DNA of 64,000 bases. It comes from Schmidtea polychroa (Eukaryota). The translations under genes were made by a program, and so were the position numbers. Below are positions 894 through 25,181 of the stretch, one piece after another. Positions within the stretch are counted from its first letter, which is position 1. Each line of letters opens with the position of its first letter. The notes under the pieces were generated by a model. The model was given only the letters and a program-made list of their open reading frames with translations. It made no database searches and was not told where the DNA came from. The stretch covers positions 21,454,001 to 21,518,000 of the forward strand of contig CM097885.1 of the NCBI GenBank assembly GCA_044892525.1. Direction: 5' to 3'.

Positions 894-903
894 CTCCCTT
901 CGA

Positions 904-3763: not shown

Positions 3764-3904
3764 CTATAATAAATTTCATCATTTCTTTTTACATTTTCTT
3801 TTTCTAATTTTTTATGGTTTTGGCACGTTACTTTACTGTATACAATAACTTTATATTTACTTTACATCGTTTTTACAAAATATTTACAGTTCCCTTCTAT
3901 CCGT

Positions 3905-5329
3905 CTATCGTATTTCTATTGTTGGTCCTTCCTCATCTAGTTCGATTAGGAAGAATATAGTGTCCTTTTCTATGTAGGACCCTTCGTTAAATTGGTATAG
4001 CTGCATAAACTCTGCTACTCCTACCGCAGGATTAACCTCTGTAATCGGTTTATTCCCTGCTGGACTGGATGCTCGAAAACACATTATATGTGTCTTTTTT
4101 GCTCCTAAGAGAGATATTTTTAATCGATGTCGGAATGGCCATGCTATTAGGTCGTCAAAATCTCCTTTACAAATTTGCATATATATGGACATGCACCGAT
4201 CTTTAAACTTTCCTTCACCATTTGGAAACCATCTCAATTTCATCTTGTATCCATGTTTCTTGGCGTAGAATGGTTTGCTCACTATCGTTGTCTGGATTCC
4301 TTGCTTTGCTTGCTCCATTATTTCCGTTATTCCTTGGATTTTCCACATGTATGGTAGTATTGGTAGTTCCTCTGTTGTCAGTTCCTTTGTAGTCCATTTG
4401 GTTTGTAATTTAGTTACTTCGACTAATTTGTCGTCTAATTTCAACATCCTTTGTGTTACGGCTTCTCTCGTATTTTCGAAGCTTTCCTGTGAGCTCAGCA
4501 TTTCTTTTATCATGATTTTATGTGATTTGAGTTCGTCTTTGACGTCTTCAATTGCTCTTGCTGTTAGCTCTATTGCTCTCATCATCTTTTGCATGTGCTC
4601 GAATGTATTCTCCTCCACATGCTTCTTCATTTCTTCTGCTGGTAATTGTGCTCTACAGTCGAATGTCACCATTGGGCATTTTATTGCTTTTCTCGTGCAT
4701 ATCTCCCAATGTTCATTTAATCTGACGTTGTTAATTTCTCCACACTCGTTTGGGCATTTCCCTGTATATTCGTCGCAAATCCGTCTTTCTACTGCGTTTC
4801 GATGTTCCATTTCGATTTCTCTCCAATTAGCAGTTTCTCCGCAAAATTCGCATTTTTCCGTTCGCTCTTCGCATTCCCCTTTATGTTTGGTTTTCTCTTT
4901 TCGTAAAAACTTTACCGTGCATGCTTCGCATTCCGATTCTAGATATTCGCATACGTCTGTATGGGCTCTTAACTCCTTTACTCGGCCTGTCCATTCGCAT
5001 GACCTTTGGGTGCATCTTATTTTCACTTCTCTGATTTCTCGGTTCATTGCTCTATCCGGTATCGTACCAGTGGGGACCAACTTAAATGCTTCTCCACATC
5101 CTGGACAAGTTTCTCGCTTTAGTCTGGCTAATCTTATATCACACCCTCGGCACAATCTACACCCGCATCGAGTTTGACTTGCTCCAATTAATAATCTTCT
5201 ACATGCTGTATCGGCACATAATAATCTCTCTTCGAACTCGTCCGGCTCGGCTTGGTATTTTCTCATCAACTCATAGTTAATCTTTTGTTCCTCTGCTTCT
5301 CTCCGGTTTTCCTCTGCTTTGTTTTGCAT
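3905..5329 (-). CDS. TRAF-family protein (RING-like, TRAF zinc fingers, coiled coil, MATH), 474 aa
   Basis: C..C..QTRCGCRLCRGC..CPGC; CEWTGRVKELRAH and CPNECG fingers; YMWKI..SKPFY..GYKMKLRWFPNG..GDFDDLIAWPF MATH signature. Confidence 0.93.
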   Translation of the reverse strand: MQNKAEENRREAEEQKINYELMRKYQAEPDEFEERLLCADTACRRLLIGASQTRCGCRLCRGCDIRLARLKRETCPGCGEAFKLVPTGTIPDRAMNREIREVKIRCTQRSCEWTGRVKELRAHTDVCEYLESECEACTVKFLRKEKTKHKGECEERTEKCEFCGETANWREIEMEHRNAVERRICDEYTGKCPNECGEINNVRLNEHWEICTRKAIKCPMVTFDCRAQLPAEEMKKHVEENTFEHMQKMMRAIELTARAIEDVKDELKSHKIMIKEMLSSQESFENTREAVTQRMLKLDDKLVEVTKLQTKWTTKELTTEELPILPYMWKIQGITEIMEQAKQGIQTTIVSKPFYAKKHGYKMKLRWFPNGEGKFKDRCMSIYMQICKGDFDDLIAWPFRHRLKISLLGAKKTHIMCFRASSPAGNKPITEVNPAVGVAEFMQLYQFNEGSYIEKDTIFFLIELDEEGPTIEIR

Positions 5330-5418
5330 TCTACAATGATGATTTTTAATCTTGGGATTTCTACTTGATTATAACTCTATTTATTTACAGGATTATTTAC
5401 ATTTCACTCCTTTCTCTC

Positions 5419-5874
5419 CTATACATCTACCGTCGAGTCCGGTTCCCCTGTTCCTGGTAACCCGGTCATCCACTCGACTAAACTGGTAATATCATCATGT
5501 TGTCGATTTTCATGCAACCTTCTAATTTCTTCCGCTTGCCATCTGATTTGGCTTATTAACTGATTGTTATTATACTCTAGTTGCGCGATTATTTGGTGTT
5601 GTTCCTCTATTTTTGTAATATATATTGCATTTCTATTAATACTCTCTATCAACGCCGTTTGGTTTCGTACCCAGTGCTCTTGAGTCTGATTTGTCAATTG
5701 GGTCATTAATTCACACTGTGCCCTCCACATGGATCCTGTTGGCTGACTCGGCTGGTTTGGCACGTTCATTTCCATCATGTCTACTGGATGTACATTCATA
5801 AGCGGCTGTTCTCTTACTTCAACAACATGTGGTATCCCATTTGGGTGTTCTTGCTCTTCGTTTCTCTGGTTCAT
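5419..5874 (-). CDS. Orphan accessory protein, 151 aa, short coiled coil
   Basis: Clean ORF in the accessory array; acceptor-like TAAATAG|GAATG at its start; no recognised domain. Confidence 0.65.
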   Translation of the reverse strand: MNQRNEEQEHPNGIPHVVEVREQPLMNVHPVDMMEMNVPNQPSQPTGSMWRAQCELMTQLTNQTQEHWVRNQTALIESINRNAIYITKIEEQHQIIAQLEYNNNQLISQIRWQAEEIRRLHENRQHDDITSLVEWMTGLPGTGEPDSTVDV

Positions 5875-6022
5875 TCCTATTTATAATACATGGTCATCAT
5901 ACTTGTTTTTGATTTTTCTACATATTGTTTTAATTTACTACTTTTATTTTGTACATACTACTACTATTATCACTACTTTTATCATTTCATTTATACATTA
6001 TTTACAACAACTCCTCCTCTCG

Positions 6023-7924
6023 TTATACCAGTGTCGCCATGGGGCCGGAATGCAGCGTGCGCATTCCCCCATATCTTTCGTCCGTTATTCGGTATATATC
6101 GACTTCGTGTGTCCATTCGTTCGGTGTGGGTATTCTTGGTAGTTCCGACATCCACAATCCGCTGGATCCGGGATCCTCTACCACCTCGTATTCTTCTATA
6201 TTCAGATTCTCTGTTGGAATACCGTATTCAAATTTTTCCACTTTGGGCCATTTTCTTTGATTTCTCGGTTTTTGTTTACATCTTTTGGTGGTTCTTATCC
6301 ACTGAATCATTGCTAACGCTATTATCGTGCTTACTATCGCGCTAGTTATCCATATCATCTTTGTGATGATCGTTGTTCCATTATTTGTTTTTTCTGTCGT
6401 TAATATTGTACTACCTGTGGTATTTGTTTCTGGTGCTTTGATTTTCTTGAATGCTTGATGTAATCGTTCCTTCTCTTTTTCTGTTAGGTGACTGTGATTT
6501 TCCCGTTTCTCTCCCCCTTCTTGATCTCGGGGTATCCACGGTATGTTTATTAATTGGGGTTTTTGTCGAGTTATTGGTTGACATACGCTGGTTCCTCTTC
6601 CTTTCTTAAGGATACATACTTGGTATCGTTCTTTCCGTTTCCCTGTCTCTATTTTAACGTCTGTACCTTTGTCTATCGGTGTTGTTGTACAGTCGATTAT
6701 TCCCGTCTTATCCATTACACATATCCTTATGATTGGTTCTCCTTCCTGGTTTTTGACTGTAATTACCTCTTCACCTTTCTTGTTGAGGTTAATAGTTATC
6801 TGCACTTCCCGTCTTTCGTCTTTAATTACTTCGTTAATCCATGTTGTTGTTGTTATTAATTCGGTTTGATTTTGCTCTGTTGTTGTTTTTGTACTAACTG
6901 ATTTGTTTGGCTTCTTGGTTGTTATCCCCCTCAATGGATCTTGTTTCATTGCCATACTCTTTGGCTTGTCTTTTCTTGGTGCAGTTCTTGTTCCTTTACA
7001 TACTACTATCCCTTGTGTTCCTGCGCATACCACAGTAAGGGTATTTGGTTTGACCTCTCCCCAGAAGAATTTGTGGTCTTGTGTCATATCAGTTATTATG
7101 CATATGTCTCTGTCTTCTCTGATGCATATATGTGTAATTGATCGACTCCCTTTATCTTCTATTTCGATACCTTCTTCCAAAATGTTGAGTTGAAAATGTA
7201 CTCCGGTTTCGTTGGCTCTTTCTAGCTCCATTTCCTCTGTTGATATGTCTCTACAGATGTCATAATCTCCACATAGCCTGGGATCTCTTTTTTGGCTGCT
7301 AAAAATCTTTCCTTTTGTTATTGATCTGAAATCACAACTTACTCCTGTTCCTTCCATTAGTTGCACACATATTCCGACGGCATTTCCGTCGTAATCACTG
7401 ACTTTTATCATAAATACTTCACCTTCTTGGGAAGCTTCTCTTACGATTCTCATATTTTTTGTTTCTGTTAAACAGATGGATGTTAATATTATAAATATTC
7501 TTTGTAGTAGGATTGGCTGGATTTGATTTCGACACACTATGCTATGTAGTGGGGACTTTCGTTTTTTGTTCTCCGTTTTGTCGAATCCTTGATCTTCACC
7601 TCGACATTGGTCTTCTTCGTCTTCTTCCAATTCCTCATCATCACTCGTTGTTTCTCCGCCTTCCGGATTCTGTTCTCTGTCGTTTTCCTCTGGGTTGTTA
7701 TCGTTATCCCCCATCCTTTCGTCGTCGTCGTCGTCGTCATTCCTCTCACCCGGGGTTTTCCTGAAAATGTCGTCCTCGACATTTGCTGCTTTGATCATCT
7801 CCTCGTATTTTTTAATTATCTCTTTTTTGCCGTTGTGGATACTTTCTCGTTCTTCTTTGGTTCCTTGATATTTCCGTTGTTTCCGGTGCCATTCCCACAC
7901 TAGTATTTCTAGTTGCTTTTTCAT
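6023..7924 (-). CDS. Predicted type-I membrane glycoprotein, 633 aa, overlapping the polyprotein end in the +1 frame
   Basis: Internal hydrophobic stretch ILLQRIFIILTSICL, Cys-bearing repeated beta-like segments, N-X-S/T sites, Thr-rich stalk, TM MIWITSAIVSTIIALAMIQWI, Tyr-containing tail. Confidence 0.7.
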   Translation of the reverse strand: MKKQLEILVWEWHRKQRKYQGTKEERESIHNGKKEIIKKYEEMIKAANVEDDIFRKTPGERNDDDDDDERMGDNDNNPEENDREQNPEGGETTSDDEELEEDEEDQCRGEDQGFDKTENKKRKSPLHSIVCRNQIQPILLQRIFIILTSICLTETKNMRIVREASQEGEVFMIKVSDYDGNAVGICVQLMEGTGVSCDFRSITKGKIFSSQKRDPRLCGDYDICRDISTEEMELERANETGVHFQLNILEEGIEIEDKGSRSITHICIREDRDICIITDMTQDHKFFWGEVKPNTLTVVCAGTQGIVVCKGTRTAPRKDKPKSMAMKQDPLRGITTKKPNKSVSTKTTTEQNQTELITTTTWINEVIKDERREVQITINLNKKGEEVITVKNQEGEPIIRICVMDKTGIIDCTTTPIDKGTDVKIETGKRKERYQVCILKKGRGTSVCQPITRQKPQLINIPWIPRDQEGGEKRENHSHLTEKEKERLHQAFKKIKAPETNTTGSTILTTEKTNNGTTIITKMIWITSAIVSTIIALAMIQWIRTTKRCKQKPRNQRKWPKVEKFEYGIPTENLNIEEYEVVEDPGSSGLWMSELPRIPTPNEWTHEVDIYRITDERYGGMRTLHSGPMATLV

Positions 7925-10900
7925 CGCATGTGGTTTTTGTGCATTTCCACCAATTACCTGTCAATTCTGTTCTATTTCTCTGTAATATTGCTTTAATGGT
8001 TTTTGGCATTGGTGGTCTTGAGTATATGGCGCTTCTTAGTACGATATTTTCGTTGTTTTGGAGTTGATTTATATCAATTACTTCCGCTCTTAATTCGTTT
8101 TGTTTCCATTTGATTAATATTGCTGCGGTTCTGTCTAAGTTTCCTCTGATGGCTTCCAGAATTGGTTCAATGCTCTGTCCCAACACCTCGGCTTCTTCGG
8201 TTGTTGCATTTCCTGTGATAAAGTTCACTATACTAGGTCTTTTTGACCTGACGGCATAACGTAATACGGTTCGTTGTTTGTTGTCTTTTTCTTTCAGCGT
8301 GGATCCCGTTCTTAATAATTCTCTGAGTACATCTCTTGACGCGCCTATTGCTATGGCTTTCATCAGTGGAGTTTTTCCTTTACTGTTTTTGACGTTTGTT
8401 GATTGTTTGCAGTTTTCCATTATTCGTATAATCTCTAAAGCTCGTTTTTCTTGTCCTGCTTTCACTGCATGATGGATTGGCCAGTTATTACTCAAATCAC
8501 TTGTTAGGAACATGATTGGTAATCTCCGGATTAGTTCATATATTTGAGTCGGTATTTGTAATCCTTCGGCATATCTTCGTCCTTTCGCATATCTTTCTGC
8601 TACTAACATTAGTTTGCCCAATACTTGGTATTTATTGGTTATATCGGCCCATTCTGGTACAATTTCTCGTGCTATTCTTACTGTCATATTCCATGTTGCT
8701 TGACTCCTTGCCATTGCGTCGGCTTCGCTTTCCGCTTCGGTTCCTTTATTGGCGCTGCTGCTTGTTTCTCCCCTCAACATGAATATCCGTCTTGTCTGTG
8801 ATCTAGTTAATCTACCGCTTACTTCTGGTTCTGGTGTGGCGTTTGTTTGCGATCTCGTGATTATCTTCCTTGTTTCTGGATCTTTAGTGGCAGTTTTCGC
8901 TACTGCTTTACATCGGCATGTATTCACATAAATGGGTCTAATTAATGGATTGTTAACCAACTTTACTCGAGCGTTGTTCTCGTTTACATAGATGATTTCA
9001 TACGGTCCTCTGCCATTACGTTGTAATTTCTTTGCTGTTCCTGGGATTAATTCGGGTGTTTCTATGATAACCCAATCTCCAACTTTAAATTGATGGTTTT
9101 GCACGTTCTTCTTTTTATCATGTAATTCTTTATAACTTTCTTGGTTGAATCGGATGTTCATCCCTGCGGTTTTCCATATTTCTTGCATTCTCTCTTTGAA
9201 CTTGGTCACATAATCATCTATCTCCATATATTGTGAGATTGGCGGTTGGTATTCGAGATCCATCGGCATGTTGCATTCTCTTCCGTACATGAGTTTAAAC
9301 GGACTCATTTTCGTCGCTGAGTGTATTGACATTCGATAAGCCATTAGACACAACTTAATATATTCATCCCAATCCTTTTGATGTTTACTGACATAATTTG
9401 ACATCATGTCTATTAGTATGCCATTAAATCTTTCTGTCTGACCATTCGTTTGTGGGTGGTACGGCGAGGTTCTCAATTTGGCAATCCTGAAATAATTTGT
9501 CACTTCATTTATTATCTCGCTCATGAAATTAGTTCCTTGGTCAGTTAAGATTTGTTTTGGTGTCCCATATCTGCAGCAGATCTCTTCCACCAATATCCTT
9601 GCAACCGTTCGTGCTTTTTGATCCGGCATCGCAAATGCTTCCGGGAACTTTGTTAGATAATCAGTTATCACCAATATATACACATTTCCGCTGTTGGTTT
9701 CTGGTAGTGGTCCAACCACGTCCATTGCAATCATTGTCATTGGTTCTGGCGGTATCGGCATTGGTTTCAAGGGCGGTTTTAATTTGCTGCCCGTTGTTCT
9801 CCTAGTCGCGCATATCAAACAGTTCTTTATCCATTCTTTCACGTCATCGCTCATATTTGGCCAGTAATATTTCTGTTTAAGCCTGGCTTCTGTTTTCTTG
9901 GCTGACATATGTCCGCCTAATTTACCGTCATGGTATTGAATCATAATTTCTTTCCGCCTGCTTTCTGGTAAGCACATCAATCGTTTGTCGCCATCCATTA
10001 CCAATAGCCATCCTTTCTCGATCGTATATCTGTGACGATTTTTCTCCATGTGTTCTTTTAGTCGATCATCGTTGTTGAATATTTTCGTATCGTTTTTATC
10101 CAGGAACTCAATTATTAGTTTTAATTCATTGTCTTCCTTTTGTTCGTTCTTTAGATTGGTAAAATCGATATCTTCCGCGATTATCAGGCATATTCGTCTG
10201 ACGTCATGATCCATGAGTTCCTCAAATACAAATCTCGACATGCAGTCTGCATTTGCGTTTGCTTTTCCTGACTTGAATTTGATGTATGGGGAATATTCTT
10301 GTAACTGCATTGCCCATCTCATTAATCGACTAGATGCTTCTTTGTGTTGGCCCAACCAAACTAGAGGTTGATGGTCTGTAGTAATAATTATCTCGTGTCC
10401 CCACAATAAATATTTGAAATGTTTTATCGCCTGAATTATTGCTAAGGCTTCTCTTTCTGTGACCGAGTAATTCTTTTCGTGCTTTTTGAACGTCTTGCTA
10501 TAATATCCGATGACTCTTTCTCGTTTCTCCTCATCCCATTGTCCTAGCACAGCTCCTGATGCATATCCACTGGCATCGGTTGCTAGTAGAAAAGGCTTTT
10601 TAAAATCTGGGTGTATTAGAATAGGTGAGGCTATTAGTTTATCTCTTAATGATTCGAATGCTATTTGCTGTTCTCTTTCCCACAAAAATGGGGTGTCTTT
10701 TTTCGTTAGTTCCTGAATTGGTTTTGCTATAGTTGCATAATTTTTGATGAACTTGCGGTAGTATCCGCATAATCCCAGAAATTCTTGTACCTGAGTCACA
10801 GTCTTTGGTATCGGGCAATTTTTTATCTTTTCAACGTTTCTCGGATCTGGTTCCTTTCCTTTTGCCGACACAATATGTCCTAAAAACGTGACTCTCTCCT

Positions 10901-13900
10901 TTGCCCAATCGCATTTTGACGGTTTCAATTTCAGCTTCCATTGTTTCAGTCTTATGAAGACGTTTCTGATATCGATTAAGTGTTGCTCGAAAGTACCTGA
11001 ATAAATTAACAGATCATCAATATACACCATACATTGTTTAATTCCGTGTGTCACAAAGTTCATACATCTTTGAAACGAAGCAGGTGCATTTGTTAATCCG
11101 AATGGCATCTTTTTAAACTGATATAAATCTTTTCCGATGGTAAAGGCTGTCTTTTCTCTATCTTCCTCTTTAACTTTAATTTGCCAGTATCCGCTCTTTA
11201 GATCTAAAGATGTAAAGTATGCTGCTCCATGTAACATCTGTAACATTTCGTTAATATCTGGCAGTGGGTATGTATCCCTTTTTGTTACTGCATTCAACCT
11301 CCGATAATCGATACAAAATCTCTGTGTGCCATCTTTCTTTTTGACCATTACCACTGGAAATTGCCATGGTGAACAGCTAGGTTCTATCACTCCGGCATCT
11401 AACATCTTTTGTACTTCCTCCTCTGCTACCGTTTTCTGTGCTTCGGCTAATCGATATGGTCTCAAAGTTATGGGTGTCTCATCCGTTAATGGTATAATGT
11501 GTTGCGTTACATCGCTGGTACCCAAATCCAAATCTGAAGCCGCAAAAATGTCTTTAAACTCAATCAGTAGTTGTCTGAGTTGTTCCTTTTCGTCTTCATT
11601 TAGGAGTTCGCTATCGATGGTCCACAATTCTTTTTCGTCTGCTCCTTCGCTTTTTAACTCCGGCAGTTCGATGTTCATCATTGGTGTGAGTTTCCCAAGT
11701 CTCTCGTTTTCGTAGATTACTTTATCTTCTTCGTCAAAATTGGTGATGTTGATGGGTATCTCATTATCCTCATTTATACTGACGATCTCTCTTGCCAATG
11801 GTAGCTCTCTTCTCTTCTCAAATTTTTGACTTGGTTCGAATATCATATCTCCTTTGGCTTCGTTATCGACCTTGACATAACATATTGTCTGGGTACGTGC
11901 TGGTATTATCATTTTTTCGGAGCATCTCACTTCTGTTCTCATTGTGCATATCTGTCCAGTTTTATCTTTTAATTTCATGGAACTCAAATCAATCACAATT
12001 TCTTTCAATAATTCCGGCATTACATCTGTTCCAATTATACATGATACGCTTAGCTGTCTAATGACTGCGAGGTATGTTGTAACTTTAACCCCTTTGTATT
12101 CGATCGTTGACCATACTCTTCCTACTACCGCTATGGATTGTTTGCTGCATGTTATTACATCCATGGTTGTTTCCTCAATGCATGGCCATAGTCTTCCTGG
12201 TAGCATATTCATATTTATTGCTGAGATATTTGCTCCGGTATCAATCATTGCATCCATCTCTATTCCGTTTACTTCGACCGTGATAGTTAACGATGGTCCT
12301 GCTGGTGTCTGCAATACCGCAATCGTTCGTGTTTCCACCTCTTGTTCTACACTTTTAGCCTGTTTGATCATCGTTGGATCCATTGCTGCCCAATTTGGTT
12401 CATAAGCTGTTGGATAAATGTTCGGTATGGGTAATCTTCCGGTTCCCATTCTTATCCGTTCTCTCATTGTTCCTGGTCGTCGCATTGGTCCATTAGTTGG
12501 TGCTTGTAAATATGGGGTCTGTGAATACGGTGATCCCCATGGTTTCATTTTTTCGTTTTCCCAAGTGGCTGTATTTTTATTTATCAACATTGCTCCTCCT
12601 TGGTTATTATCATCGTCGTTGAAATCATCATTGTCGTTGTCACTATCATCGTCTCGTCTGAGGTTCATCCACTTTTTCCACTTCCCGGTTCTTTTTGCTT
12701 TCTCTTGAGTTCTTTCTGCTTCTAATCTCATTATCACTTTGAACTTACGTCCGACTTCTTCGTCTGTCCCTTTCATTTGCGTTAGTATTTTCAACAATCT
12801 TTTTATTCGATGAATATCCTTTGAGTGTCCATGCAACACCATTGTTTTCGCTAAGAACGGTAAGAATCCAATTGCAAGTTTCCAATTTACTTTTCTCTCG
12901 CGCTTATAGATGTCAAAACATGCTAGCATCTGGGTTAGTATTACTCTGACTATTTGTATTATCAGAATAATTCCGAGTATTCCTGCCATCATTTGGCCAA
13001 ATACCAAAAATCGACCCCACATAGCCTTCATCATGTTTGCTGTTGCTTGTTGGTAGTGACTTGGTGATAATAATAGCTCGTAATTTGGGCTCTCCCCATA
13101 ATTATTTCCTCCAGAAATAGTCACTATATTTGATAGGATCGCTTGTCTGTGTGCTGGGAATAACATGTGGGCCCTTGCTGATTCAAGATCTTTTGGTGTA
13201 TATAATCCACTCTGTGATACGTCTATCGGCTTGAACTCTAATTCTGTTGTTAGTTCCGTCAATCCAAATTTCTTGGGTGTCACTACGATTGTTTTACTTG
13301 GAAATTGAACCCATTGTCCATCTTCTTTTTCATACATTGGTCCATATGCATTACTGCAATTAAACAGATTTGGCTGAAACCCTACCGGGTTCATTATCCT
13401 AGTGACTGCTTGCACAAACCTGGGTTTACCTTCGTGAATAATTTCGAGTTCGTTTGCACACTTATCCCTTGGTATTGTAGGGTTTTCCGGCAATCTTGCC
13501 ATTATCTTTTTGCATTGGTAGGTGTACATCACTTCGCCCACGATTCGTCCGAAATATCCTTCCTGTAATGGTAGTAGTGGGATTGCGTTATCTGGATTTG
13601 TAATCGCCATTGCTAATTTTGTTCTCAATATTTCTTTGTTGAGCAGGCAATCGTTTCTTAACAGATCATGGTAGACTTTTTCCGTGGATGTTAATCCTCT
13701 GTGATATAAGAAATCCATCTTATTATTAGCGTATAAATATAATTTGACATCCTTTTCGCTTAGTCTTCCGACTGCATTTGCTAGGGTTCTCCGCGACAAG
13801 TAGATCCCTTTATAATTGGTGCTGATCACCATCTCATCGCATTTACTCACCATTTTGTTCTTTATGAACCTCATTCCTATTCCATCGTCTTTGGAGATTA

Positions 13901-16900
13901 TCGCTGTGGGTGTTGCTTCCGATTCCAATTTCGATGTTATTACGTCTTCCCTGAATCCTTTCCTTGCTCTCAATTCTTCCATCGCTCGTCTCTCTGCTTC
14001 TCCTTTTGGTTCACTGTACACTTTCCCTTGGATTTCTTCGAATATTGCTGTCTTGAGTAACATTAGTCGACATACTTTCTGATCTGCGTGGTATACCAGA
14101 GTTGACATTCCGGTTGAACATGATCGATCTGATGCGAGACAGCTTGGGTATTTCTTCATTGCTTGCGTGTCAGGGTCAAAGTAGCCTTGATACTTTTCCA
14201 ATTTAGCTTCGTAACTTTCTATTACGACCACTCCACTAACCAGTTGTCCGTTCAAGGTGTATGTTCCTGTCTCACATGTTCCGTCTCCTTTAGTGATTCT
14301 GCCCGCCGTATATACGCGAGTCGTTTTTATTTTTCCTGGTTCTGCAGCGATTTCAATCCCTTGCCTTAAGTGGATTCTCCCTGATCGGAACCCTTCCTCG
14401 CATTCCTCTCTTGATAGTAATATTACTGTCGATTCCAATCCTGGTTCTATGATTGTAGAGTGTGAGGATGAACCGCAGTGATGTGCGAATATCTTTCTGG
14501 TTACCGTACACTCTTGGACCATAGTTTTGATGAAATCTGCTTCTTGATATACGTTGTACGAGACTGATGCCATGACTGTTTGTAATTTTCTTGGGTTTGC
14601 CGCTTTACAGTCTTCCGTATCCTTTAATGAATATTTCTCATGGATTTTTATGTTGTCGCAGTCGTATACTGCAAATGACTCCGTTCCTTTGATACACATC
14701 ATCCATATCAATATCGTGGTTATTATGGCATTCATTCCCTTTCGACTTGCTCTTGGGTCGTTTATATTGATTGTTCCTTCGAATTCAGTTAGCAAATCGC
14801 GTAACTTTGCTTGCATCATTTCCGTTTGATCTTTCTTCCCAGTTGATTCGATGAAGCTTCTCCATCCCCCTTGTTCAAGTATATATGGTTCTATTGATCG
14901 TTTAATTATTTCTGTTACTGTGAATTCGTAACCCGTTGCGTTATATTTTGGCATTCGTTTTTTATATTGACCGATAACGTTATATACTAAATATGCTAAT
15001 CCCACTAAAAATCGATTTTGGTCCTCTGATCTGCTTAATAGATGTTCCACAATTAATCTGAGTTCCACGGGATCTTTTAACGTTAATCGAATTTTATTAT
15101 CCATGATTTTCATTATTATCGGTTTCAATACTGCCCATAATTGTTTGGCTTCGGTCGGAATATTATCCTTCCTCATGACTCTTTTCACTTCTGGATTTGC
15201 TAATGCTAACATGTTGGCTAATAGGTCATTTATCCATCGTGTCCCTTGTTCTCGGACGCTTGTCTTCACTTTCACTTGTTTTACTAATGCACTTAGTTTA
15301 TCCATTTTAGTTTTTACCTGCTCCATTTGCGCCTGAACTTTGGATTTTGGTTCGATCTCTGCTTTATCTGTTTTTGGTCTTCCTCTTGTTCGTCGATCCA
15401 TAGCTGTTCCGGTTTCTTTCCGTTTTGGCGGATTGTAAGTTGTATCTTTTGACGTGGTCGCTCCTGGATCTACTCTCCAGTTGCTCCATTCATCGGTTGT
15501 GGTTACATCTTTATTGGCACCTCTTTCCACGTTATCTAAATCCGTCTCGGCTTCCGTCGTTTCCACTGGTTGTCTCTGCGCGCATACAAATCCATCTAAA
15601 TCATCAGTTGTCGGTTCACCTTCGTCGATAAATAGATCTCCTGATTGCGATACTCTCATAATCTCGCCTGCTTCTACTATCTCTTGTAATTCATCCAGTA
15701 TTTCGTCTTCTCCCGTTGTTTCGATCGTCACTTCACTAACCGCATTTGGAACTTCTGGTGTGTCCAAACTTCCTGGTTGTTGGGTGGATGATTTTTGCTT
15801 TATCTCTCTTCTCCTTAGCTCTCTACCTGCAATTTTACTCACCGTTAATCTGTTCACAATTTCTCCTTGGAGTGGTGTCACACCGATCTCAATATCGTCG
15901 TCTAATGATCGTCCCTCATGTTGTAAGTGGAATGGGAGTTCATAAGGTATTCTCTTTTTAACTTCTCTGACTTTAGCTGTCGTATAGAATTCCTTTTCCA
16001 TTGGTTCAAAATCTGGCATGAATATTTTTAATTGATATTTCTCAGGTGAGTTTTCGGCCCACTCTTGTTGTTTCCATTTCCGGATGATTTCACCAAATTG
16101 TTCAGGGTACCATACGTATACCCGTCGATATTCTTCAATCGCTTTAACGATCTTTCGTAGATTTTGAATCCTTTTGCATGATTCGGCTATCCATTTTGCT
16201 AGTTCTACCACCGCTCGTCGACGATTTTTCGCCCCGTTTTGTAATATCTCCGTCAACTCCTTACATTTTTGTGCTTCCAACAATGTTGCTGCTTCCCCCT
16301 CATCTGCATCTGCGTCTATTGGTAGATGTCCTGAATCAGACACTCTTCTCCTCATCATACAGATTCTCGGTTGATTTTCTGGTATGTTCAGTCGTTGGTT
16401 CATTTCTTGTTCTGTTTCAACTTCTACTCTGATCTGGATAGCATTGTTTTTCACAAATTTTGACTGCTCATTCTCAATGTAACTTAGACGTATTAATTTA
16501 GGTGTCCCAGAAGCGATATTTTCTGATGTTGTTGGTCGTTGATAGCAGGCGCTCCTTGGATCTGGTTTCAATGTTTCTTTATGCATGTTAAGGCTATCTT
16601 TCAATGGTTCGATTGCTATCGTCACTTTTCTGCTAAACGGCCATGGTACCTTGTCGTCATAATTTCCTTTGCAGATGACGAAGAATGCCGACACATAACT
16701 TCCTTTACCTATCCCGTCTCCGTTCGGGTATATTCGCAATTTCATCTTGTACTCACCTAATCCTGAGTAGAACGGTGGACTTACTAATCGTGTGATTTTC
16801 TCTTCCTTTGCTGATTTTATCTTTTCCATCCAATTCTCAATTTTCCACGTGAATGGTGCTAACCTTACCGGTTCTCGTATCTCCTCATCTTCTCCTGATG

Positions 16901-19900
16901 GTAATTCATTTTGGAATTCTTGTGGTAATATATCCTGGTAAGTATCGATCGGTTTCTCTCTTACCCATACTGCTGCGATCTTTTCGGGTATATTATCTAT
17001 CCAATTTGGTTCCAACTTTTGCTGCTCCCAATCCCATCGAGCTTCACTTTCGATCCACACTTTTTTCCATGGTATCAGTTTGCAATCTTCGTCATTGAAG
17101 GCTGCTAGTTTTAGTTTATCATCCTTTAGCCAATGGTTATAAATATCTATTATTCGATCCATCTTTGCTCTCATTCCCCATTGGAATCTTTTAACTTGTT
17201 GCTCGGTTTTCGTGGCGTTTTTGTGCCCACCAGATGGTTCATCCATCGCGATTATATTGATGACGGCTCCATCTTCCCAGATTCCTAGTTCGTAAATTCC
17301 AGTTCGGTCTCCTCTTTCCAGCATGTGCCGGTTGTACATTATTATCACATCTTCGATCATTCCATCCTCACTATTTTCTCGCGCTTTTTGGATGATCTCT
17401 TGATCTATGATTTGCACTAACTCGTCAACTTGGCAATCGGGATTAACTTCTATTATTTGTTTCTCTTCATTTGGCAACTTCACCTTTATTTTTATCGTTT
17501 CATGCTCGCATTTGGTTCTCTCGTATTCTCCGTATTTAGATATCAATTCTGTCGCTCGTTTGTCTTCGAATCTCATGATTTCCGTGTCTCGTACGTCTTT
17601 AACGAATTGTTTCATTAGTTGTGGCCATCTTTCTCTCAGTCTATTAATGTATTTCCTTGTCTGATCGATAGCTTGTTTGACTAAGATTATTTGATTTTCT
17701 TTCATTATTTTTCGTTCGATCTTTTCCAATTCTGGTTCCACTTCATTGTTAAACACTTGTTGGATTTTCTTGAACATTTCTGCTACCGAGTCGTCATCTC
17801 TGGTTTTCTCTAAGGTTAAGATGTTAGTTTCGTTTGGCCATATCATCGCATCTACCAAATGTATGCCCATTTTAACTTTGTAACCATCGACATATAATTG
17901 TTTATTTTTATGGTTCGTTCCCATTTTTTCCTGTACCCAGTTGTACAGTTCATCGGTATTTGTTCCTTTTAATTCAATAGTCTGTATCTGAATCTCGGGG
18001 TGTTGAATACTTACTTGATATTGATCTGGGCCTGCTTCCTTTAGTTTCTCTTTGTATTTTGTTGCTAAATCTTTCCATGCTGCCGTTATTATACCTCCTT
18101 CACACTGGTATACTTGAGTTATAAGTTTTAAGCATTTTCTGTATGTTAACTCGTTGATGTAGCTCTCATTTCGCTCTATTTCTGTTACTGTGTCGAGAAT
18201 TTCCTCGAATATCTCTTCTTCACCTTTTTCTATCATTGATTTCATGTCATCATTTTCACTCTCCTCACTACTTTGAGGTGTTTCACTGTTTGGAGGTGTT
18301 TTCGGTTCGTTATTTTCCTCACTTGACTGAAATAATTCGCCTCCCAGGCTACTCACCTCGCTTTTCTCATCTTCCTGATCCGTCTGATCGCTCCGCATTT
18401 GTCTCAGCATGTTTATTTTAGCTTTGGTATGTGGTTCCTTCTTTTCAAACCACTCATTTTTCCTGAACCAATGCTCTTTCACTTTTTCTTTTATTTGTTC
18501 CTCAGTTAATGTAGGATTTTCGTTTTTGATTCTGTCTTCGATTTTTTGTAGTAGTACCCTCTGAATTCGATTTTTTGTAATTATCTCATTGCTTTTTGGT
18601 TCGTCTTTACTCTCATCTCTCTTTTGTCTCCTTTCTTTCTCCTCTTTGGTAAATTCTTTAATCAATTGTATTTTCTCTTCACTGCTCAATTCTGTTCGTG
18701 GATCAATCTCATCTTCTTTTGTCGTTTTTATCTCCTTGTTTATTATCGGTTCACTCCCGTCGTTGTTAACACACTGCTCCGCAGTGTGCGATTCCTCTTT
18801 ATTTGTTAATCTCATCATATTTATTCTTCCGGGATTCGCTTCCCGTTGTTTCCATCTTTCTTGAATTTCTCTGGCTTCCTCGTTTTGTAATCTTTGCCAT
18901 TCGACTCGTTGCTGATCTTGTTGTTGCTTACTTGGTTGGTTCCGGATTTCCTCGGTGCTCTGCATCATGTTGATTCGTTGTTGTTGGTTATTAGTCGGTA
19001 TTCGCTGGATCATATCTTTTAATTGTTCGATTTCCTGCATGAGGTTGATTTGTGTGTTCTGAACTGGATTGTTTGATCCTGGTTGATTTGGTTTGGTTCT
19101 CATCGTGCATTCTCTTGCCATGTGTCCAGGCTGATTACAATTGTAGCAGGTTCTGGTTCCTCCTCTGCCCATAGACATCATGGGTCCTCTGCAGACATTT
19201 TCCGTGTGGCCTCTTCTCCCACACTTTTGACACATCCTTGCTTTATAACATTCATTGCTCCAATGCCCTGGTCGTTGGCATATGTTGCACGTTCGATTGT
19301 TGATGTCCCTGAAATTATTAGTAAAATTTTGAATATTACCTCCATTGTCTTGGTTTCTCGTTTGTGGGGTTTTGAACAACTGTTGCGATCCTGGGATGAA
19401 TTGATTCATTACTGGATTTGCATTATTGACTTGGTTGTTTGTGGTTGTTGCTGTTGTTGCTGGAGCTGCTGGGGCTGCTGTCATTGCTGCTACTTGTATT
19501 GGTGTTAGGTAAGTTTCACATTTGTTAGCTATTTTTAGTGCTTCTTCCAGCGTCTCTGGTGCTCGGCATCCCAAAGTTGCTCGTATATCCTCCCGTTTCA
19601 TGCCATCTACGAATACGGCTATTATTTTGTCTTCCGGAACTGGTTGATTTGAATCGAAGGCTTCTCTTGCTAGTCGTCTCAATTCGCATGCGTACAGTGC
19701 GTTGGATTCGTTATATTTCTGCTTTCGATGCAGAAAGTCTAACATTTTTCGATTTCCCTCTTTTTCGGTACCGAATGTTTTTATTAAAAATTCCTTGATC
19801 TCTTTCCACGTTCTCAACTTAGTTGCATCACATTTCGCCTCCAAGTATACATCTTGGGCGCTTCCCTTTAGATATAGGGGTATTCGTTCTCGTACGACTA

Positions 19901-20306
19901 TGTCTGGCCAGTGACATATCGTAATGTATACTTCGAATTCCTTTATAAACGTTTCCAGCTGGTTTATATTTCCATCGAATGGCTCTCCTCGAAATTTCTC
20001 TCTGAATTCTCCAATGTTGACGTGCACATTACTTGTTTCCGGTGGGTCCGTTAGCCCTGTTACATTTGGAATTCCGTCTGTCATTATTTCTTGACACAAA
20101 ATTGTTATATTGGTTGACTCTGAACTATTTCCTTCCTCGTCTGATGATTCAATGTCACTTATCGGATCTAGTTCGGTTCGTTTAAGATCGTCGCTGTTCT
20201 CAAATTCGTTTGTTAAACTGTCTGATTCAAATACTGTTTCTACTGATGCTGGCTTCCTGTGTAGTTTTCTGTTGGTCTTGGCCTTTTGTATCTCTTCCTT
20301 TTCCAA
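7812..20306 (-). CDS. Gag-accessory-Env-Pol polyprotein (4164 aa from TTG; first ATG at 20084 gives 4090 aa)
   Basis: Capsid-like ~20000-19500; three CX2CX4HX4C knuckles ~19289-19106; MATH ~16856-16416; BH2-like YILEQGGWRSF; glycoprotein 14735-12915; protease IDTGA ~12242; RT YIDD 11024-11013; RNase H TDASG..NADCMSR; integrase HHCC, D-D-E and GPY; ankyrins ~8490-8000. Confidence 0.95.
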   Translation of the reverse strand: MEKEEIQKAKTNRKLHRKPASVETVFESDSLTNEFENSDDLKRTELDPISDIESSDEEGNSSESTNITILCQEIMTDGIPNVTGLTDPPETSNVHVNIGEFREKFRGEPFDGNINQLETFIKEFEVYITICHWPDIVVRERIPLYLKGSAQDVYLEAKCDATKLRTWKEIKEFLIKTFGTEKEGNRKMLDFLHRKQKYNESNALYACELRRLAREAFDSNQPVPEDKIIAVFVDGMKREDIRATLGCRAPETLEEALKIANKCETYLTPIQVAAMTAAPAAPATTATTTNNQVNNANPVMNQFIPGSQQLFKTPQTRNQDNGGNIQNFTNNFRDINNRTCNICQRPGHWSNECYKARMCQKCGRRGHTENVCRGPMMSMGRGGTRTCYNCNQPGHMARECTMRTKPNQPGSNNPVQNTQINLMQEIEQLKDMIQRIPTNNQQQRINMMQSTEEIRNQPSKQQQDQQRVEWQRLQNEEAREIQERWKQREANPGRINMMRLTNKEESHTAEQCVNNDGSEPIINKEIKTTKEDEIDPRTELSSEEKIQLIKEFTKEEKERRQKRDESKDEPKSNEIITKNRIQRVLLQKIEDRIKNENPTLTEEQIKEKVKEHWFRKNEWFEKKEPHTKAKINMLRQMRSDQTDQEDEKSEVSSLGGELFQSSEENNEPKTPPNSETPQSSEESENDDMKSMIEKGEEEIFEEILDTVTEIERNESYINELTYRKCLKLITQVYQCEGGIITAAWKDLATKYKEKLKEAGPDQYQVSIQHPEIQIQTIELKGTNTDELYNWVQEKMGTNHKNKQLYVDGYKVKMGIHLVDAMIWPNETNILTLEKTRDDDSVAEMFKKIQQVFNNEVEPELEKIERKIMKENQIILVKQAIDQTRKYINRLRERWPQLMKQFVKDVRDTEIMRFEDKRATELISKYGEYERTKCEHETIKIKVKLPNEEKQIIEVNPDCQVDELVQIIDQEIIQKARENSEDGMIEDVIIMYNRHMLERGDRTGIYELGIWEDGAVINIIAMDEPSGGHKNATKTEQQVKRFQWGMRAKMDRIIDIYNHWLKDDKLKLAAFNDEDCKLIPWKKVWIESEARWDWEQQKLEPNWIDNIPEKIAAVWVREKPIDTYQDILPQEFQNELPSGEDEEIREPVRLAPFTWKIENWMEKIKSAKEEKITRLVSPPFYSGLGEYKMKLRIYPNGDGIGKGSYVSAFFVICKGNYDDKVPWPFSRKVTIAIEPLKDSLNMHKETLKPDPRSACYQRPTTSENIASGTPKLIRLSYIENEQSKFVKNNAIQIRVEVETEQEMNQRLNIPENQPRICMMRRRVSDSGHLPIDADADEGEAATLLEAQKCKELTEILQNGAKNRRRAVVELAKWIAESCKRIQNLRKIVKAIEEYRRVYVWYPEQFGEIIRKWKQQEWAENSPEKYQLKIFMPDFEPMEKEFYTTAKVREVKKRIPYELPFHLQHEGRSLDDDIEIGVTPLQGEIVNRLTVSKIAGRELRRREIKQKSSTQQPGSLDTPEVPNAVSEVTIETTGEDEILDELQEIVEAGEIMRVSQSGDLFIDEGEPTTDDLDGFVCAQRQPVETTEAETDLDNVERGANKDVTTTDEWSNWRVDPGATTSKDTTYNPPKRKETGTAMDRRTRGRPKTDKAEIEPKSKVQAQMEQVKTKMDKLSALVKQVKVKTSVREQGTRWINDLLANMLALANPEVKRVMRKDNIPTEAKQLWAVLKPIIMKIMDNKIRLTLKDPVELRLIVEHLLSRSEDQNRFLVGLAYLVYNVIGQYKKRMPKYNATGYEFTVTEIIKRSIEPYILEQGGWRSFIESTGKKDQTEMMQAKLRDLLTEFEGTININDPRASRKGMNAIITTILIWMMCIKGTESFAVYDCDNIKIHEKYSLKDTEDCKAANPRKLQTVMASVSYNVYQEADFIKTMVQECTVTRKIFAHHCGSSSHSTIIEPGLESTVILLSREECEEGFRSGRIHLRQGIEIAAEPGKIKTTRVYTAGRITKGDGTCETGTYTLNGQLVSGVVVIESYEAKLEKYQGYFDPDTQAMKKYPSCLASDRSCSTGMSTLVYHADQKVCRLMLLKTAIFEEIQGKVYSEPKGEAERRAMEELRARKGFREDVITSKLESEATPTAIISKDDGIGMRFIKNKMVSKCDEMVISTNYKGIYLSRRTLANAVGRLSEKDVKLYLYANNKMDFLYHRGLTSTEKVYHDLLRNDCLLNKEILRTKLAMAITNPDNAIPLLPLQEGYFGRIVGEVMYTYQCKKIMARLPENPTIPRDKCANELEIIHEGKPRFVQAVTRIMNPVGFQPNLFNCSNAYGPMYEKEDGQWVQFPSKTIVVTPKKFGLTELTTELEFKPIDVSQSGLYTPKDLESARAHMLFPAHRQAILSNIVTISGGNNYGESPNYELLLSPSHYQQATANMMKAMWGRFLVFGQMMAGILGIILIIQIVRVILTQMLACFDIYKRERKVNWKLAIGFLPFLAKTMVLHGHSKDIHRIKRLLKILTQMKGTDEEVGRKFKVIMRLEAERTQEKAKRTGKWKKWMNLRRDDDSDNDNDDFNDDDNNQGGAMLINKNTATWENEKMKPWGSPYSQTPYLQAPTNGPMRRPGTMRERIRMGTGRLPIPNIYPTAYEPNWAAMDPTMIKQAKSVEQEVETRTIAVLQTPAGPSLTITVEVNGIEMDAMIDTGANISAINMNMLPGRLWPCIEETTMDVITCSKQSIAVVGRVWSTIEYKGVKVTTYLAVIRQLSVSCIIGTDVMPELLKEIVIDLSSMKLKDKTGQICTMRTEVRCSEKMIIPARTQTICYVKVDNEAKGDMIFEPSQKFEKRRELPLAREIVSINEDNEIPINITNFDEEDKVIYENERLGKLTPMMNIELPELKSEGADEKELWTIDSELLNEDEKEQLRQLLIEFKDIFAASDLDLGTSDVTQHIIPLTDETPITLRPYRLAEAQKTVAEEEVQKMLDAGVIEPSCSPWQFPVVMVKKKDGTQRFCIDYRRLNAVTKRDTYPLPDINEMLQMLHGAAYFTSLDLKSGYWQIKVKEEDREKTAFTIGKDLYQFKKMPFGLTNAPASFQRCMNFVTHGIKQCMVYIDDLLIYSGTFEQHLIDIRNVFIRLKQWKLKLKPSKCDWAKERVTFLGHIVSAKGKEPDPRNVEKIKNCPIPKTVTQVQEFLGLCGYYRKFIKNYATIAKPIQELTKKDTPFLWEREQQIAFESLRDKLIASPILIHPDFKKPFLLATDASGYASGAVLGQWDEEKRERVIGYYSKTFKKHEKNYSVTEREALAIIQAIKHFKYLLWGHEIIITTDHQPLVWLGQHKEASSRLMRWAMQLQEYSPYIKFKSGKANANADCMSRFVFEELMDHDVRRICLIIAEDIDFTNLKNEQKEDNELKLIIEFLDKNDTKIFNNDDRLKEHMEKNRHRYTIEKGWLLVMDGDKRLMCLPESRRKEIMIQYHDGKLGGHMSAKKTEARLKQKYYWPNMSDDVKEWIKNCLICATRRTTGSKLKPPLKPMPIPPEPMTMIAMDVVGPLPETNSGNVYILVITDYLTKFPEAFAMPDQKARTVARILVEEICCRYGTPKQILTDQGTNFMSEIINEVTNYFRIAKLRTSPYHPQTNGQTERFNGILIDMMSNYVSKHQKDWDEYIKLCLMAYRMSIHSATKMSPFKLMYGRECNMPMDLEYQPPISQYMEIDDYVTKFKERMQEIWKTAGMNIRFNQESYKELHDKKKNVQNHQFKVGDWVIIETPELIPGTAKKLQRNGRGPYEIIYVNENNARVKLVNNPLIRPIYVNTCRCKAVAKTATKDPETRKIITRSQTNATPEPEVSGRLTRSQTRRIFMLRGETSSSANKGTEAESEADAMARSQATWNMTVRIAREIVPEWADITNKYQVLGKLMLVAERYAKGRRYAEGLQIPTQIYELIRRLPIMFLTSDLSNNWPIHHAVKAGQEKRALEIIRIMENCKQSTNVKNSKGKTPLMKAIAIGASRDVLRELLRTGSTLKEKDNKQRTVLRYAVRSKRPSIVNFITGNATTEEAEVLGQSIEPILEAIRGNLDRTAAILIKWKQNELRAEVIDINQLQNNENIVLRSAIYSRPPMPKTIKAILQRNRTELTGNWWKCTKTTCDEKATRNTSVGMAPETTEISRNQRRTRKYPQRQKRDN

Positions 20307-21176
20307 TAAACTGAGGTTTCCTTTACTTTTTCGCCTCGTTCGGTTAGCTATGCTATCAATTTTTCCTCTTTTTAATATCCTTTGATAAATTTTCTACTTT
20401 GTCAATCGAGCTCGATGTTTCCTAAGTATTTTTCTCGCTTTAATCTTTACGATTCTCTAACTCTTCTTGGATTTGGTTTTATTAATTTCCTTGATTCTTC
20501 GCTTCTAATTGATTTCTCTATATCTCTTGATTTCTATTGCTTTCTTGATTTCTTTGATTTCTTTCTGAATTGTTTGCTTTATTCTAAAATAATTAACACC
20601 TCTAGTACATATCATAAATTCTCTTTATTAAACCCTTCATTTACTTTCCCTTTTCCCTTTATTTTACTGTCCCTTCGCTTCAAATTTTCTAGCTTTTCTA
20701 CACTTCTCGCTATTCGCCCCATTTTGATTTTAAGTTGATTTTAAATTATCTATAACTCGTATCAATTATCTATATAGTCGTATCAATTATCTATCCCTTT
20801 TATTATTATCATAGAAATATAATATTAATCACATAAATATCAAAATAAACATATCATTAATAAATAAAATTCAATAATTCAACTACTATCTATTCGTTCG
20901 CTTTTCCCCATCCAAAAACTGGTTTAGTTTTCGCTTGCGCCGGCGCTTTATCATAATTCTCCTCTACTCATTACATATTTATCGCACTTAATCTATTTCA
21001 GTTTAATCAATTTCATAGTTAATCATTGATGCTTTGGTTCGCGCGACCTCTACATCCACCTTTATTTACCATCGGCTCTCTGGCCGGTTTGTTCAACTCC
21101 TTTATTTTCATTTAAATCATTTCACTCAATTACCATCGGCTCCTTGGCCGGTTTAATCAACTCATTTTAATCTCAT

Positions 21177-21490
21177 GAAGTCTTTTACGACTCCTAGACG
21201 CCTGGGCTTTTACACCATTACGCCATATAATCTATTATTACCCATCAACGCTTTGGTTTGTTAGACCTCCGCGTCGGCATCGGCTTCCGGCCGGTTTAAT
21301 CAAAATTGAAGTCTTTTACGACTCCTAGACGCCTGGGCTTTTACACCATTACGCCATATACTCTACTATTACCCATCAACGCTTTGGTTTGTTAGACCTC
21401 CGCGTCGGCATCGGCTTCCGGCCGGTTTAATCAAAATTGAAGTCTTTTACGACTCCTAGACGCCTGGGCTTTTACACCATTACGCCGTAT
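21177..21490. repeat. 131-bp tandem repeat (~2.4 copies) in the element leader
   Basis: gaagtcttttacgactcctagacgcc at 21177, 21308 and 21439. Confidence 0.92.
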
Positions 21491-22896
21491 TCGCGGTCTT
21501 CGGTCCCTGACCGGTTTCAAATGCCCTAAATGAGGTTTCTTCAACCCCCAGACGCCTTCGGTTTTAACACCTACTATCGTCCCTACCGCGATTAAATTGA
21601 GTTGACAGTTGACTTTCGGGCTAATCAAAAATTCGAGGCTCCTCCTACTCCAACTCTTAATCTGCTGAGGCCTCACAACTGGCTCAATTCTTGGCCGCTT
21701 ATTGAAAAGAGTCTAATACCGGTAACTCTAATCTCATCGCCGTTTCACTGGGCCTATCGGTACTCGGTGTGGGCATCCGGGTTTTGTACCGACCCCTGCT
21801 AGCAATAATCACGAAGAAAAAACATCCTATCTATCAGGATTTAAAAAAAAACACGGAAATGCCTAATCGCCTTGATCGTGATTCTCAAAAGTGATGAACC
21901 AGATCTCCCGACTAGTGAAGCTAAAAGGAAATTGGGTATGCAGTTGACTCTCGGTCTCCCGCCTCACAACTGGTCCAATCTTGGTTGCCTGTTGAGTACG
22001 AGTCCTTTACCGGTTGACTCGCATCTCACAACCGTTTCACTGGGCTCCTTGATACTCGGTGTAGGTAACTGGGTCTCTCTCGCTCGCTACCCTTCCGGGT
22101 TTTTGTATCAAGTCCCGCTAGCAACTCAAAAAGTGCGCCCAATACTCGGTGTGGCATCCGGGTTTTTGTATTGGGTGATCCAGCATCATCAGTCCCTTGG
22201 CTGATAATCTCCTGGACACTACAGTCCGGTGGTTAGCCGCTGTACTCGGGTGCCTCATCACTCGCTAGGGAAAAATCATTATTCTCATCTGATTTGAAGT
22301 CCAAAAACGGTTTCTTCAAATCCGCAGCTGCTCTCGGATTAAATTTTTAACATTTAGCGCGCGTTTTTCAATTTTTATTTTATTTTTCTATTTTTATTCA
22401 CCCTTTTAGTCAGTCCCCGTCTCCCAGACAAAAAAATATAATAATCGCGTTGGTTCGTTTCCCACAAGTGGTGATCAGTCACTGGACAGAAACTCCCCAA
22501 CATTTGCGATGGATCCTACTACATTCTCTCATCAGGGTGATCAGGATTTCCCCATCCGGGCAAGTGTCGTAAGGACGATTCACTTGTCATCCCCTCATTA
22601 TCGTATCTCTTTATGCCAAAATAACAAACAGGAAGAAAAGAAAATTGGAAATAAAAATCGTACTGATCTTAGCGATCAGCTCATTCATACGACTATGATC
22701 AGTCCTGCATTCAACTTTGATTTTAGTTCTAATTGCTGTGTTGCTTGTCTATTTATTTAACGTATTTTGTGTCCTTTATATGTCTATGTTCATCGTATGT
22801 TTTACACCTTTCGGTTGCTATAATGGATTTTTAATATAATTTACTAATTTTATCACTTCATATTCATTCACAAGAAATTTATTTGACAACATCTCC

Positions 22897-24077: not shown

Positions 24078-24095
24078 ATCCCGGCTGAGCCCCCA
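24078..24095 (-). other. Primer-binding site complementary to tRNA-Pro 3' end
   Basis: TGGGGGCTCAGCCGGGAT, 16/18 identical to the MLV tRNA-Pro PBS TGGGGGCTCGTCCGGGAT, just inside the LTR. Confidence 0.9.
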
Positions 24096-24971: not shown

Positions 24972-25181
24972 CTAGATAAATTCAACGATTATATTCTTGC
25001 AGCATACTATTCATTCAATTATAAAATAAAATCAATATTATAAATAAACATAGTTTCGGAGGTTAAGCACGCAATACACAAGATGATTTATTAAAAGGAC
25101 TGAAATAATTATCACTAAAATCAAAGTTTAATAAAGTCACAACTGAATGATAATTTGCAAAAACAAAATTTCGACGATAAG

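Follow-up and report, generated by a model that had tools for sequence, protein, structure and literature searches.

Retroelements with long terminal repeats (LTRs) in which env sits ahead of pol have been described from several invertebrates. In Burro/GYPSM1 of the planarian Schmidtea mediterranea, env lies in frame between a BCL2-like region and the protease (PR) (Arkhipova & Yushenova 2019, PMC6431247). The same source reports that this region matches the fusion glycoproteins of arthropod and fish mononegaviruses and that the elements may be integrated proviruses. BURRO1 transcripts, detected by fluorescence in situ hybridization, were enriched in the intestine and repressed by SMEDWI-2 (PMC8532177). 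Ty3/gypsy elements with the order GAG-ENV-POL and an Env of the herpesvirus glycoprotein B (gB) type have been reported from Platyhelminthes, Nematoda and Bryozoa (Chary & Hayashi 2026, PMC13524379, which cites Sacco et al. 2022 for the nematode elements), and capture of chuvirus glycoproteins is on record for mosquito Pao elements (PMC7642597, PMC10084718). Here we analyse 64,000 nucleotides (nt) of Schmidtea polychroa DNA (GCA_044892525.1, contig CM097885.1, positions 21,454,001 to 21,518,000), referred to as the window. In our judgement it is highly probable that the minus strand of the window holds a giant endogenous retrovirus of the Ty3/gypsy type, a young copy of the Burro/GYPSM1 kind with an in-frame class III Env, the match to Burro being one of published anatomy.

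An earlier note on this DNA, made from its letters, had taken a joint Gag-Env-Pol polyprotein to be a layout undescribed for LTR elements. This part of the note has to be given up. The in-frame env of Burro/GYPSM1 was in print in 2019 (PMC6431247) and a paper of 2026 generalised the order GAG-ENV-POL (PMC13524379), so that the window adds no new kind of system.

An envelope glycoprotein within ORF1

The segment in question belongs to a single minus-strand open reading frame (ORF), ORF1, of 4164 codons, which spans window 7812–20306 according to the translation and the ORF reading; residue n is found at window 20306-3(n-1). Neither a stop codon nor a frameshift interrupts it from Gag and MATH through Env to PR, reverse transcriptase (RT), RNase H, integrase (IN) and the ankyrin repeats, which is also the order of the Pfam matches along the frame. 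The earlier note had placed a glycoprotein between Gag and protease, in the same frame, at 12915–14735. This interval corresponds to amino acids (aa) 1858–2465 of ORF1 (14735–12912), and all motifs by which the note described it are present in the translation, namely MNAIITTILIWMMCIKGTES, AVYDC, HHCGSSSH, GDGTC, CLLNKEIL, AITNPD, GYFGRIVGEVMYTYQC, SGLYT and RAHMLFP. From its N-terminal side, the segment comprises an internal signal-like stretch recognised by its hydrophobicity (aa 1858–1877; 14676–14735), an ectodomain delimited by Pfam, alignment, model and fold searches (aa 1878–2432; 13011–14675) and a transmembrane (TM) helix (aa 2433–2465; 12912–13010). A cytoplasmic tail with an acidic linker (aa 2466–2674; 12285–12911) then leads to the retroviral-type aspartyl protease identified by Pfam (aa 2675–2766; 12009–12284).

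The identity of the segment is established by sequence and by predicted structure. The Pfam family PF24664 (Monjiviricetes_fusion, the mononegavirus fusion glycoprotein) matches the polyprotein with an E-value of 4.6e-68 and 230 bits against a gathering cut-off of 27, the best stretch being aa 2143–2468, and the score is 241 bits when the Env segment is searched alone. At E ≤ 10, PF24664 is the only meaningful Pfam match of the segment, a single further row having a chance-level E of 0.22. An exhaustive HMMER search with the 663-aa segment reached 997 proteins at E ≤ 1e-3; of these, 487 pass E ≤ 1e-10 and 40 pass E ≤ 1e-30. The best of these are parts of long polyproteins with 28–45% identity; standalone glycoproteins of ~650 aa, with 22–30% identity, come after them. 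Each of the 14 cysteines of the ectodomain occupies a column with at least 90% conservation in an alignment of 102 sequences.

The same 102-sequence alignment gave an AlphaFold2 model of Env with a mean pLDDT (predicted local distance difference test) of 87.2 and a pTM (predicted template modelling score) of 0.66. The model consists of long beta hairpins, a 48-residue central helix (residues 332–379) and a long TM helix (558–613), in support of the TM segment named above. When it was compared with BFVD by Foldseek, chu-like and chuvirus glycoproteins came out on top (E 8.9e-41 to 1e-36, TM-score 0.53–0.61) among 198 matches at E ≤ 0.001, with other Monjiviricetes glycoproteins and herpesvirus gB below them. 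Against the Protein Data Bank (PDB), Foldseek gave 115 matches at E ≤ 0.001, and herpesvirus gB accounts for all matches listed, to rank 50, with a best E of 7.7e-15. VIA-align likewise listed 50 entries, all of them gB, of which the best was postfusion gB (Z 10.9, 420 residues aligned, root-mean-square deviation 6.5 Å). Even a profile search of PDB sequences with Env pointed to gB in 33 of 33 matches, weakly (E 0.02). Rhabdovirus G and gp64 were absent from the Foldseek PDB and VIA-align matches listed, where gB stood alone. F-type or gypsy Env (class I) families appeared neither in Pfam at E ≤ 10 nor among the Foldseek and VIA-align rows listed. The model and the matches thus support the reading of the Env glycoprotein as chuvirus-like and of its fold as class III, in agreement with the fusogen class that the earlier note had assigned. 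We are nearly certain that ORF1 encloses a complete chuvirus-type class III fusion glycoprotein.

A search for the furin-type pattern R-x-K/R-R in aa 1858–2520 found it once, at aa 2500 (RIKR) in the cytosolic tail, and nowhere inside the ectodomain; furin-type priming of the ectodomain was dropped as a candidate on this ground.

Copies and relatives of the embedded env

The genome searched for further copies measures 781 Mb, and four large contigs (C1–C4) are among the places listed. With env DNA as the query there were 604 first-look candidates; of these, 40 were scored, and all 40 are ~100% identical. With the env protein there were 2886 candidates, and none of the 67 scored matches has a stop in env. 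The segment is present and open in the sister copies, and an assembly artefact was ruled out, the sequence recurring at 67 places at least. The enclosing open frame is 4791 aa long in 42 of the 67 copies and reaches at least 4784 aa in 52 of them. In each of the 7 sister loci fetched, the reading frame stays open for 1607 codons, which take in the upstream region, Env and PR. Over this distance the window copy differs from each of them by 46–55 synonymous and 4–7 non-synonymous codons, and within Env, 4 codons differ between the window copy and the 7 sister copies.

In the block from PR to the region ahead of RT (11418–12341, minus strand; aa 2656–2963), about 45 shared codon positions set the window copy apart from all 7 sisters. 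The codon pattern would fit a patch peculiar to a subfamily or brought in by recombination, with purifying selection acting on it.

A second family in the same genome has an Env that is 35% identical to that of the window. In two of its four fetched loci, one frame takes in 604 upstream codons, the motif ENGGWE, a hydrophobic signal and AYDC; stops further upstream occur in the remaining two. Embedding is also found in more distant proteins. Env, PR, RT, RNase H and IN are joined in one protein in all three giant database polyproteins, and among the long cluster representatives PR and/or RT follow Env in 8 of 11, while the remaining 3 break off close to the Env C-terminus; one carries a CCHC knuckle upstream. 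We compared 15 embedded Envs with 45 standalone glycoproteins, the latter being the first by identifier of 95 with lengths of 600–800 aa (the other 50, and fragments, were left out). In a quick, unrooted maximum-likelihood tree (LG+G4), a branch with an SH-aLRT support of 98 parts the 15 embedded forms from the 45 standalone ones. Such a single clade is consistent with one old fusion event; with a tree that is both quick and unrooted, we regard it as a lead, not as proof.

Several divergent relatives (P0003, P0004, P0006, P0007, P0009, P0011 and P0017) contain two aspartyl-protease-like domains. One of the two is of the DDI type (PF09668) and stands right behind Env in some relatives and far downstream in others; the window polyprotein shows one protease.

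Proposed membrane topology and processing

The two most hydrophobic segments of the 4164-residue polyprotein, aa 1860–1872 and aa 2433–2465, flank a 553-aa ectodomain, and the signal-like stretch and TM that the earlier note had seen on either side of it are thereby recovered. A Kyte-Doolittle value of 1.4 over 19 residues is reached at aa 2429–2467 only, that is, at the TM; in windows of 11–15 residues, aa 1858–1872 forms the second most hydrophobic stretch of the polyprotein. The bracketing is shared by the embedded relatives. In 15 of 15, a hydrophobic 11-mer (Kyte-Doolittle ≥ 2.15) occurs within 32 aa before [YF]DC, with 153–1880 residues upstream, and a TM follows the ectodomain in 14 of 15, the exception being a truncated sequence. 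Relatives that lack the BH2-like motif discussed below keep the signal, and we therefore assign this segment to Env. As for the cleavage site, small residues at positions -3 and -1 are the rule for signal peptidase, and in the window copy the residues T-E-S, small at these two positions, precede FAVYDC. They would be compatible with cleavage after aa 1877.

From the positions of signal and TM, one membrane-threaded Gag-Env-Pol chain can soundly be inferred. We lean, with moderate confidence, towards the following scheme for its processing as a whole. The genomic RNA would be translated as a single chain, of which the Gag side remains in the cytosol. The hydrophobic residues 1860–1872 would then act as an internal signal that directs the ribosome to the endoplasmic reticulum (ER), where the 553-aa ectodomain would be translocated and form its disulfides. 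Transfer would be halted by the TM at 2433–2465, with Pol again synthesized in the cytosol. Host signal peptidase may cleave after TES (aa 1877), and the protease of the element may separate the Env tail from PR on the cytosolic side. The outcome would be a type I Env available for enveloped particles and a synthesis ratio of 1:1:1 for Gag, Env and Pol. Separation by 2A-like skipping was considered and dropped, since NPGP occurs nowhere in the polyprotein. If the threading is real, the element places a class III fusogen amid its Gag-Pol polyprotein and threads it across the ER membrane, an unusual route to an enveloped retrovirus, with a bearing on how retroelements turn infectious and on how a 34-kb RNA genome is expressed.

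The Gag side of the signal raises a further idea. The motif PYILEQGGWRSFIESTG (aa 1807–1823; 14838–14888), read by eye and taken by us to resemble BH2, ends ~35 residues before the signal, and its GGW core is common to the second family. On this idea, the Gag-side cut would be made by host ER signal peptidase instead of the retroviral protease, and the cleaved Env signal would stay behind as the C-terminal anchor of the upstream product. There it would also serve a BCL2-like survival factor as its tail anchor, so that a single processing step would tie the biogenesis of Env to the control of apoptosis. We raise it because the motif stands at a Bcl-2-like spacing from the hydrophobic segment in two families whose Envs are 35% identical; in the sections of PMC6431247 and PMC13524379 considered here it is not stated. 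The domain searches did not confirm a BCL2-like fold: upstream of env, this region had no Pfam match at E ≤ 10, the ESM Atlas gave no usable match to the region, and 0 of 130 candidates of 121–387 aa matched at E ≤ 0.1. An AlphaFold2 model of the region, built from a two-sequence alignment, was unusable (pLDDT 42.7), and aligning it with whole relatives, in 13 rows, gave nothing reliable ahead of the signal. We hold the coupling to be a doubtful, speculative proposal.

Several points weigh against the single-chain scheme. The ectodomain contains one N-x-S/T sequon (N2316), few for a viral glycoprotein. The third most hydrophobic segment of the polyprotein lies in the tail (aa 2477–2491, Kyte-Doolittle 1.89 over 15 aa, an amphipathic segment); if membrane-spanning, it could invert the topology of Pol. 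The signal-peptidase site is read by a rule of thumb, and a 1:1:1 ratio of Gag, Env and Pol is unlike retroviruses. Besides, the window copy is itself frame-broken past the ankyrin repeats, where its ORF1 (4164 codons; 4193 aa from stop to stop) ends ~600 codons earlier than in most sister copies. This follows from the ORF at 6023–7924 on the minus strand, which supplies the missing C-terminal part in another frame, together with the alignment of one sister locus over 4176 nt, in which a single one-position length difference from the window copy was seen.

The main rival to the single-chain scheme would have Env made, as in orthoretroviruses, from a spliced or internally initiated subgenomic mRNA that starts at Met1858, and Gag-Pol from an mRNA without env. 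The signal-like segment does begin precisely with Met1858, a Met is found at or before the hydrophobic core in 6 of the 15 embedded relatives, and the accessory ORFs past pol would require subgenomic mRNAs anyway. Nevertheless, the other 9 relatives have no Met ahead of the core within 40 aa, and 2 of the 15 lack one altogether, which means that the embedded forms do not conserve a start codon dedicated to Env. A transcript from Met1858 would, moreover, still read on into Pol. The frame also speaks against separate mRNAs. No stop divides Gag, Env and Pol in the window copy, none occurs across env in 67 of 67 copies and none in 14 divergent polyproteins, and a frame kept at 28–45% identity is hard to explain without translation across the junctions. 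Four runs of short contigs, of uncertain kind, were mapped on 8500–28429 and showed no joint that skips env, although such contigs cannot exclude splicing; the four contig joints listed on this interval, each from a single contig with non-canonical ends and short sides of 20–30 nt, were not used. On this evidence we judge separate mRNAs to be distinctly unlikely.

A different question is what the fusogen is for. It might be kept for an intracellular or cell-to-cell role, such as anchoring Gag-Pol assembly to ER membranes or mediating cell-cell fusion and spread, instead of serving free virions; such a role departs from the single-chain scheme solely in the use of the fusogen. Hundreds of near-identical copies inherited through germline or stem cells attest to efficient intragenomic spread, for which an extracellular phase is not required, the single glycosylation sequon would fit such a role, and the TRAF-, IAP- and RING-like ORFs of the element point to manipulation of the host cell. 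Against this stands the preservation of the whole fusogen architecture (signal, 14 cysteines, central helix, TM and tail), as expected of a working entry protein, and we consider such a role rather unlikely. Least probable by far, to the point of being negligible, is that env is a dead passenger, a functionless endogenous chuvirus fragment that happened to land in the element. Insertions of chuvirus glycoproteins are indeed common in invertebrate genomes (PMC7642597, PMC10084718). The conservation data already contradict such a reading here: the cysteines are conserved and the fold model is confident, env is open in every scored copy and in families that are only 35% identical, the embedded forms make up one old clade, and in the surrounding frame synonymous changes between subfamilies far outnumber non-synonymous ones.

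The host element and its known relatives

The 5′ LTR (24104–28429) and its left-of-window partner (L009 4252–8577) are each 4326 nt long, have TG...CA ends and show 2 differences. The element measures 34,178 nt, with an internal region of 25,525 nt, and lies on the minus strand, as do all of its features given here. Its Ty3/gypsy traits are the direct TG...CA LTRs, the order PR-RT-RNaseH-IN and a Gag with CCHC knuckles. A stretch resembling a primer-binding site starts 8 nt past the 5′ LTR, and a possible 4-bp target-site duplication, ATAT, is found in AT-rich flanks. Pieces of LTR that are 73–96% identical to parts of the 4.3-kb LTR occur at 31418–32552, 43707–44397, 38792–38861 and 46853–47027, and also at L009 1773–2012, just outside the 3′ LTR. 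This scatter hints at older LTRs from related elements, either solo or in fragments.

A 3.8-kb leader (20307–24103) separates the 5′ LTR from gag; it holds the primer-binding-site-like stretch, a 131-nt tandem duplication (21176–21437) and an upstream accessory ORF (22897–23379) of 160 aa with a C3HC4 RING finger (E 3.4e-12). In ORF1, Gag consists of a Retrotrans_gag match at aa 143–237 and three CCHC zinc knuckles, read in the translation, up to aa 401 (together 19104–19880), and is followed by a MATH/TRAF-C domain at aa 1152–1296 (16419–16853; Pfam E 1.3e-28). Beyond the BH2-like motif, Env and PR, Pfam places RT at aa 2988–3146, RNase H at aa 3209–3338 and IN at aa 3447–3618 (together 9453–11345), and the ankyrin repeats at aa 3944–4031 (8214–8477). 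The 3′ part of the element within the window (1–7924) contains, after the ORF at 6023–7924, a TRAF-like ORF with a TRAF zinc finger and a MATH domain (3905–5329), an IAP-like ORF with BIR and RING domains (2585–3763) and two ORFs of no known family (904–2502 and 1–780). Judged by their domains, these accessory ORFs point to the NF-kB, ubiquitin and apoptosis pathways of the host, a link remarked upon earlier for the accessory domains of Burro (PMC6431247). Outside the element, the window contains host-type ORFs on the minus strand, one for Hsp70 that lacks the first ~80 profile positions (35219–36916; E 4.9e-219) and one with an RRM domain (58386–58991; E 5e-21).

As regards known systems, the proposed topology invites comparison with flavivirus and pestivirus polyproteins. 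These belong to RNA viruses, carry internal signals and are cut by host signal peptidase and a viral serine protease. The likeness would lie in the arrangement: the capsid side is cytosolic, an internal signal leads into a lumenal glycoprotein, a TM stops transfer, and the enzymes are again cytosolic; no homology is implied. Herpesvirus gB, which acts with gH/gL in a DNA virus, has in common with the Env model a fold over ~400–430 residues, including the long central helix, at a sequence identity of 10–13%. This indicates a common fusogen class, not a common family. The best match in both sequence and structure is to the Jingchuvirales/Monjiviricetes glycoproteins of PF24664, which share the cysteine pattern, signal, TM and tail. 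They differ in being standalone genes for ~650-aa proteins of negative-strand RNA viruses, at an identity of 18–30%, and the embedded forms make up a separate clade.

Among retroelements, the mosquito Pao elements (PMC7642597) resemble the present one in that an LTR retroelement carries a chuvirus-type glycoprotein, but they belong to another superfamily, BEL/Pao. Closer are the 'errantivirus'-type elements of PMC13524379, with which the window element shares the place of Env, between gag and pol, its gB-like fold of class III with conserved cysteine bridges, and the presence of multiple near-identical copies. That survey sought separate ORFs, with gaps of at most 2000 nt between ENV and POL, and in the sections considered here it names neither Burro nor a single fused frame. 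The window element, for its part, is several times larger and has extras of the TRAF, IAP, RING, MATH and ankyrin types.

The closest relative by anatomy is Burro/GYPSM1. In the published description it exceeds 30 kb, with a 25-kb internal region, and has three CCHC knuckles in its Gag, domains of the MATH_TRAF_C, BIR and ankyrin types, many near-identical copies and an in-frame env before PR that matches mononegavirus fusion glycoproteins (PMC6431247). All of this recurs here in an element that likewise exceeds 30 kb, with a giant ORF encoding Gag, MATH, Env, PR-RT-RH-IN and ankyrin repeats, and with BIR encoded elsewhere in the element. Compared by description, the two differ in the length of ORF1, which is 4,873 aa in the published element as against 4164 codons in the window copy and a 4791-aa frame in most sister copies. 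They also differ in the class given to Env, which the 2019 text linked by HHpred to gypsy Env, related to class I (PMC6431247), whereas the model of the window copy indicates a class III fold. The present analysis adds this fold-level class III assignment for the Env of a Burro-type copy, the bracketing of the ectodomain by a signal in 15 of 15 embedded relatives and by a TM in 14 of 15, the grouping of the embedded forms in a single clade, and a model for how such a polyprotein might be processed.

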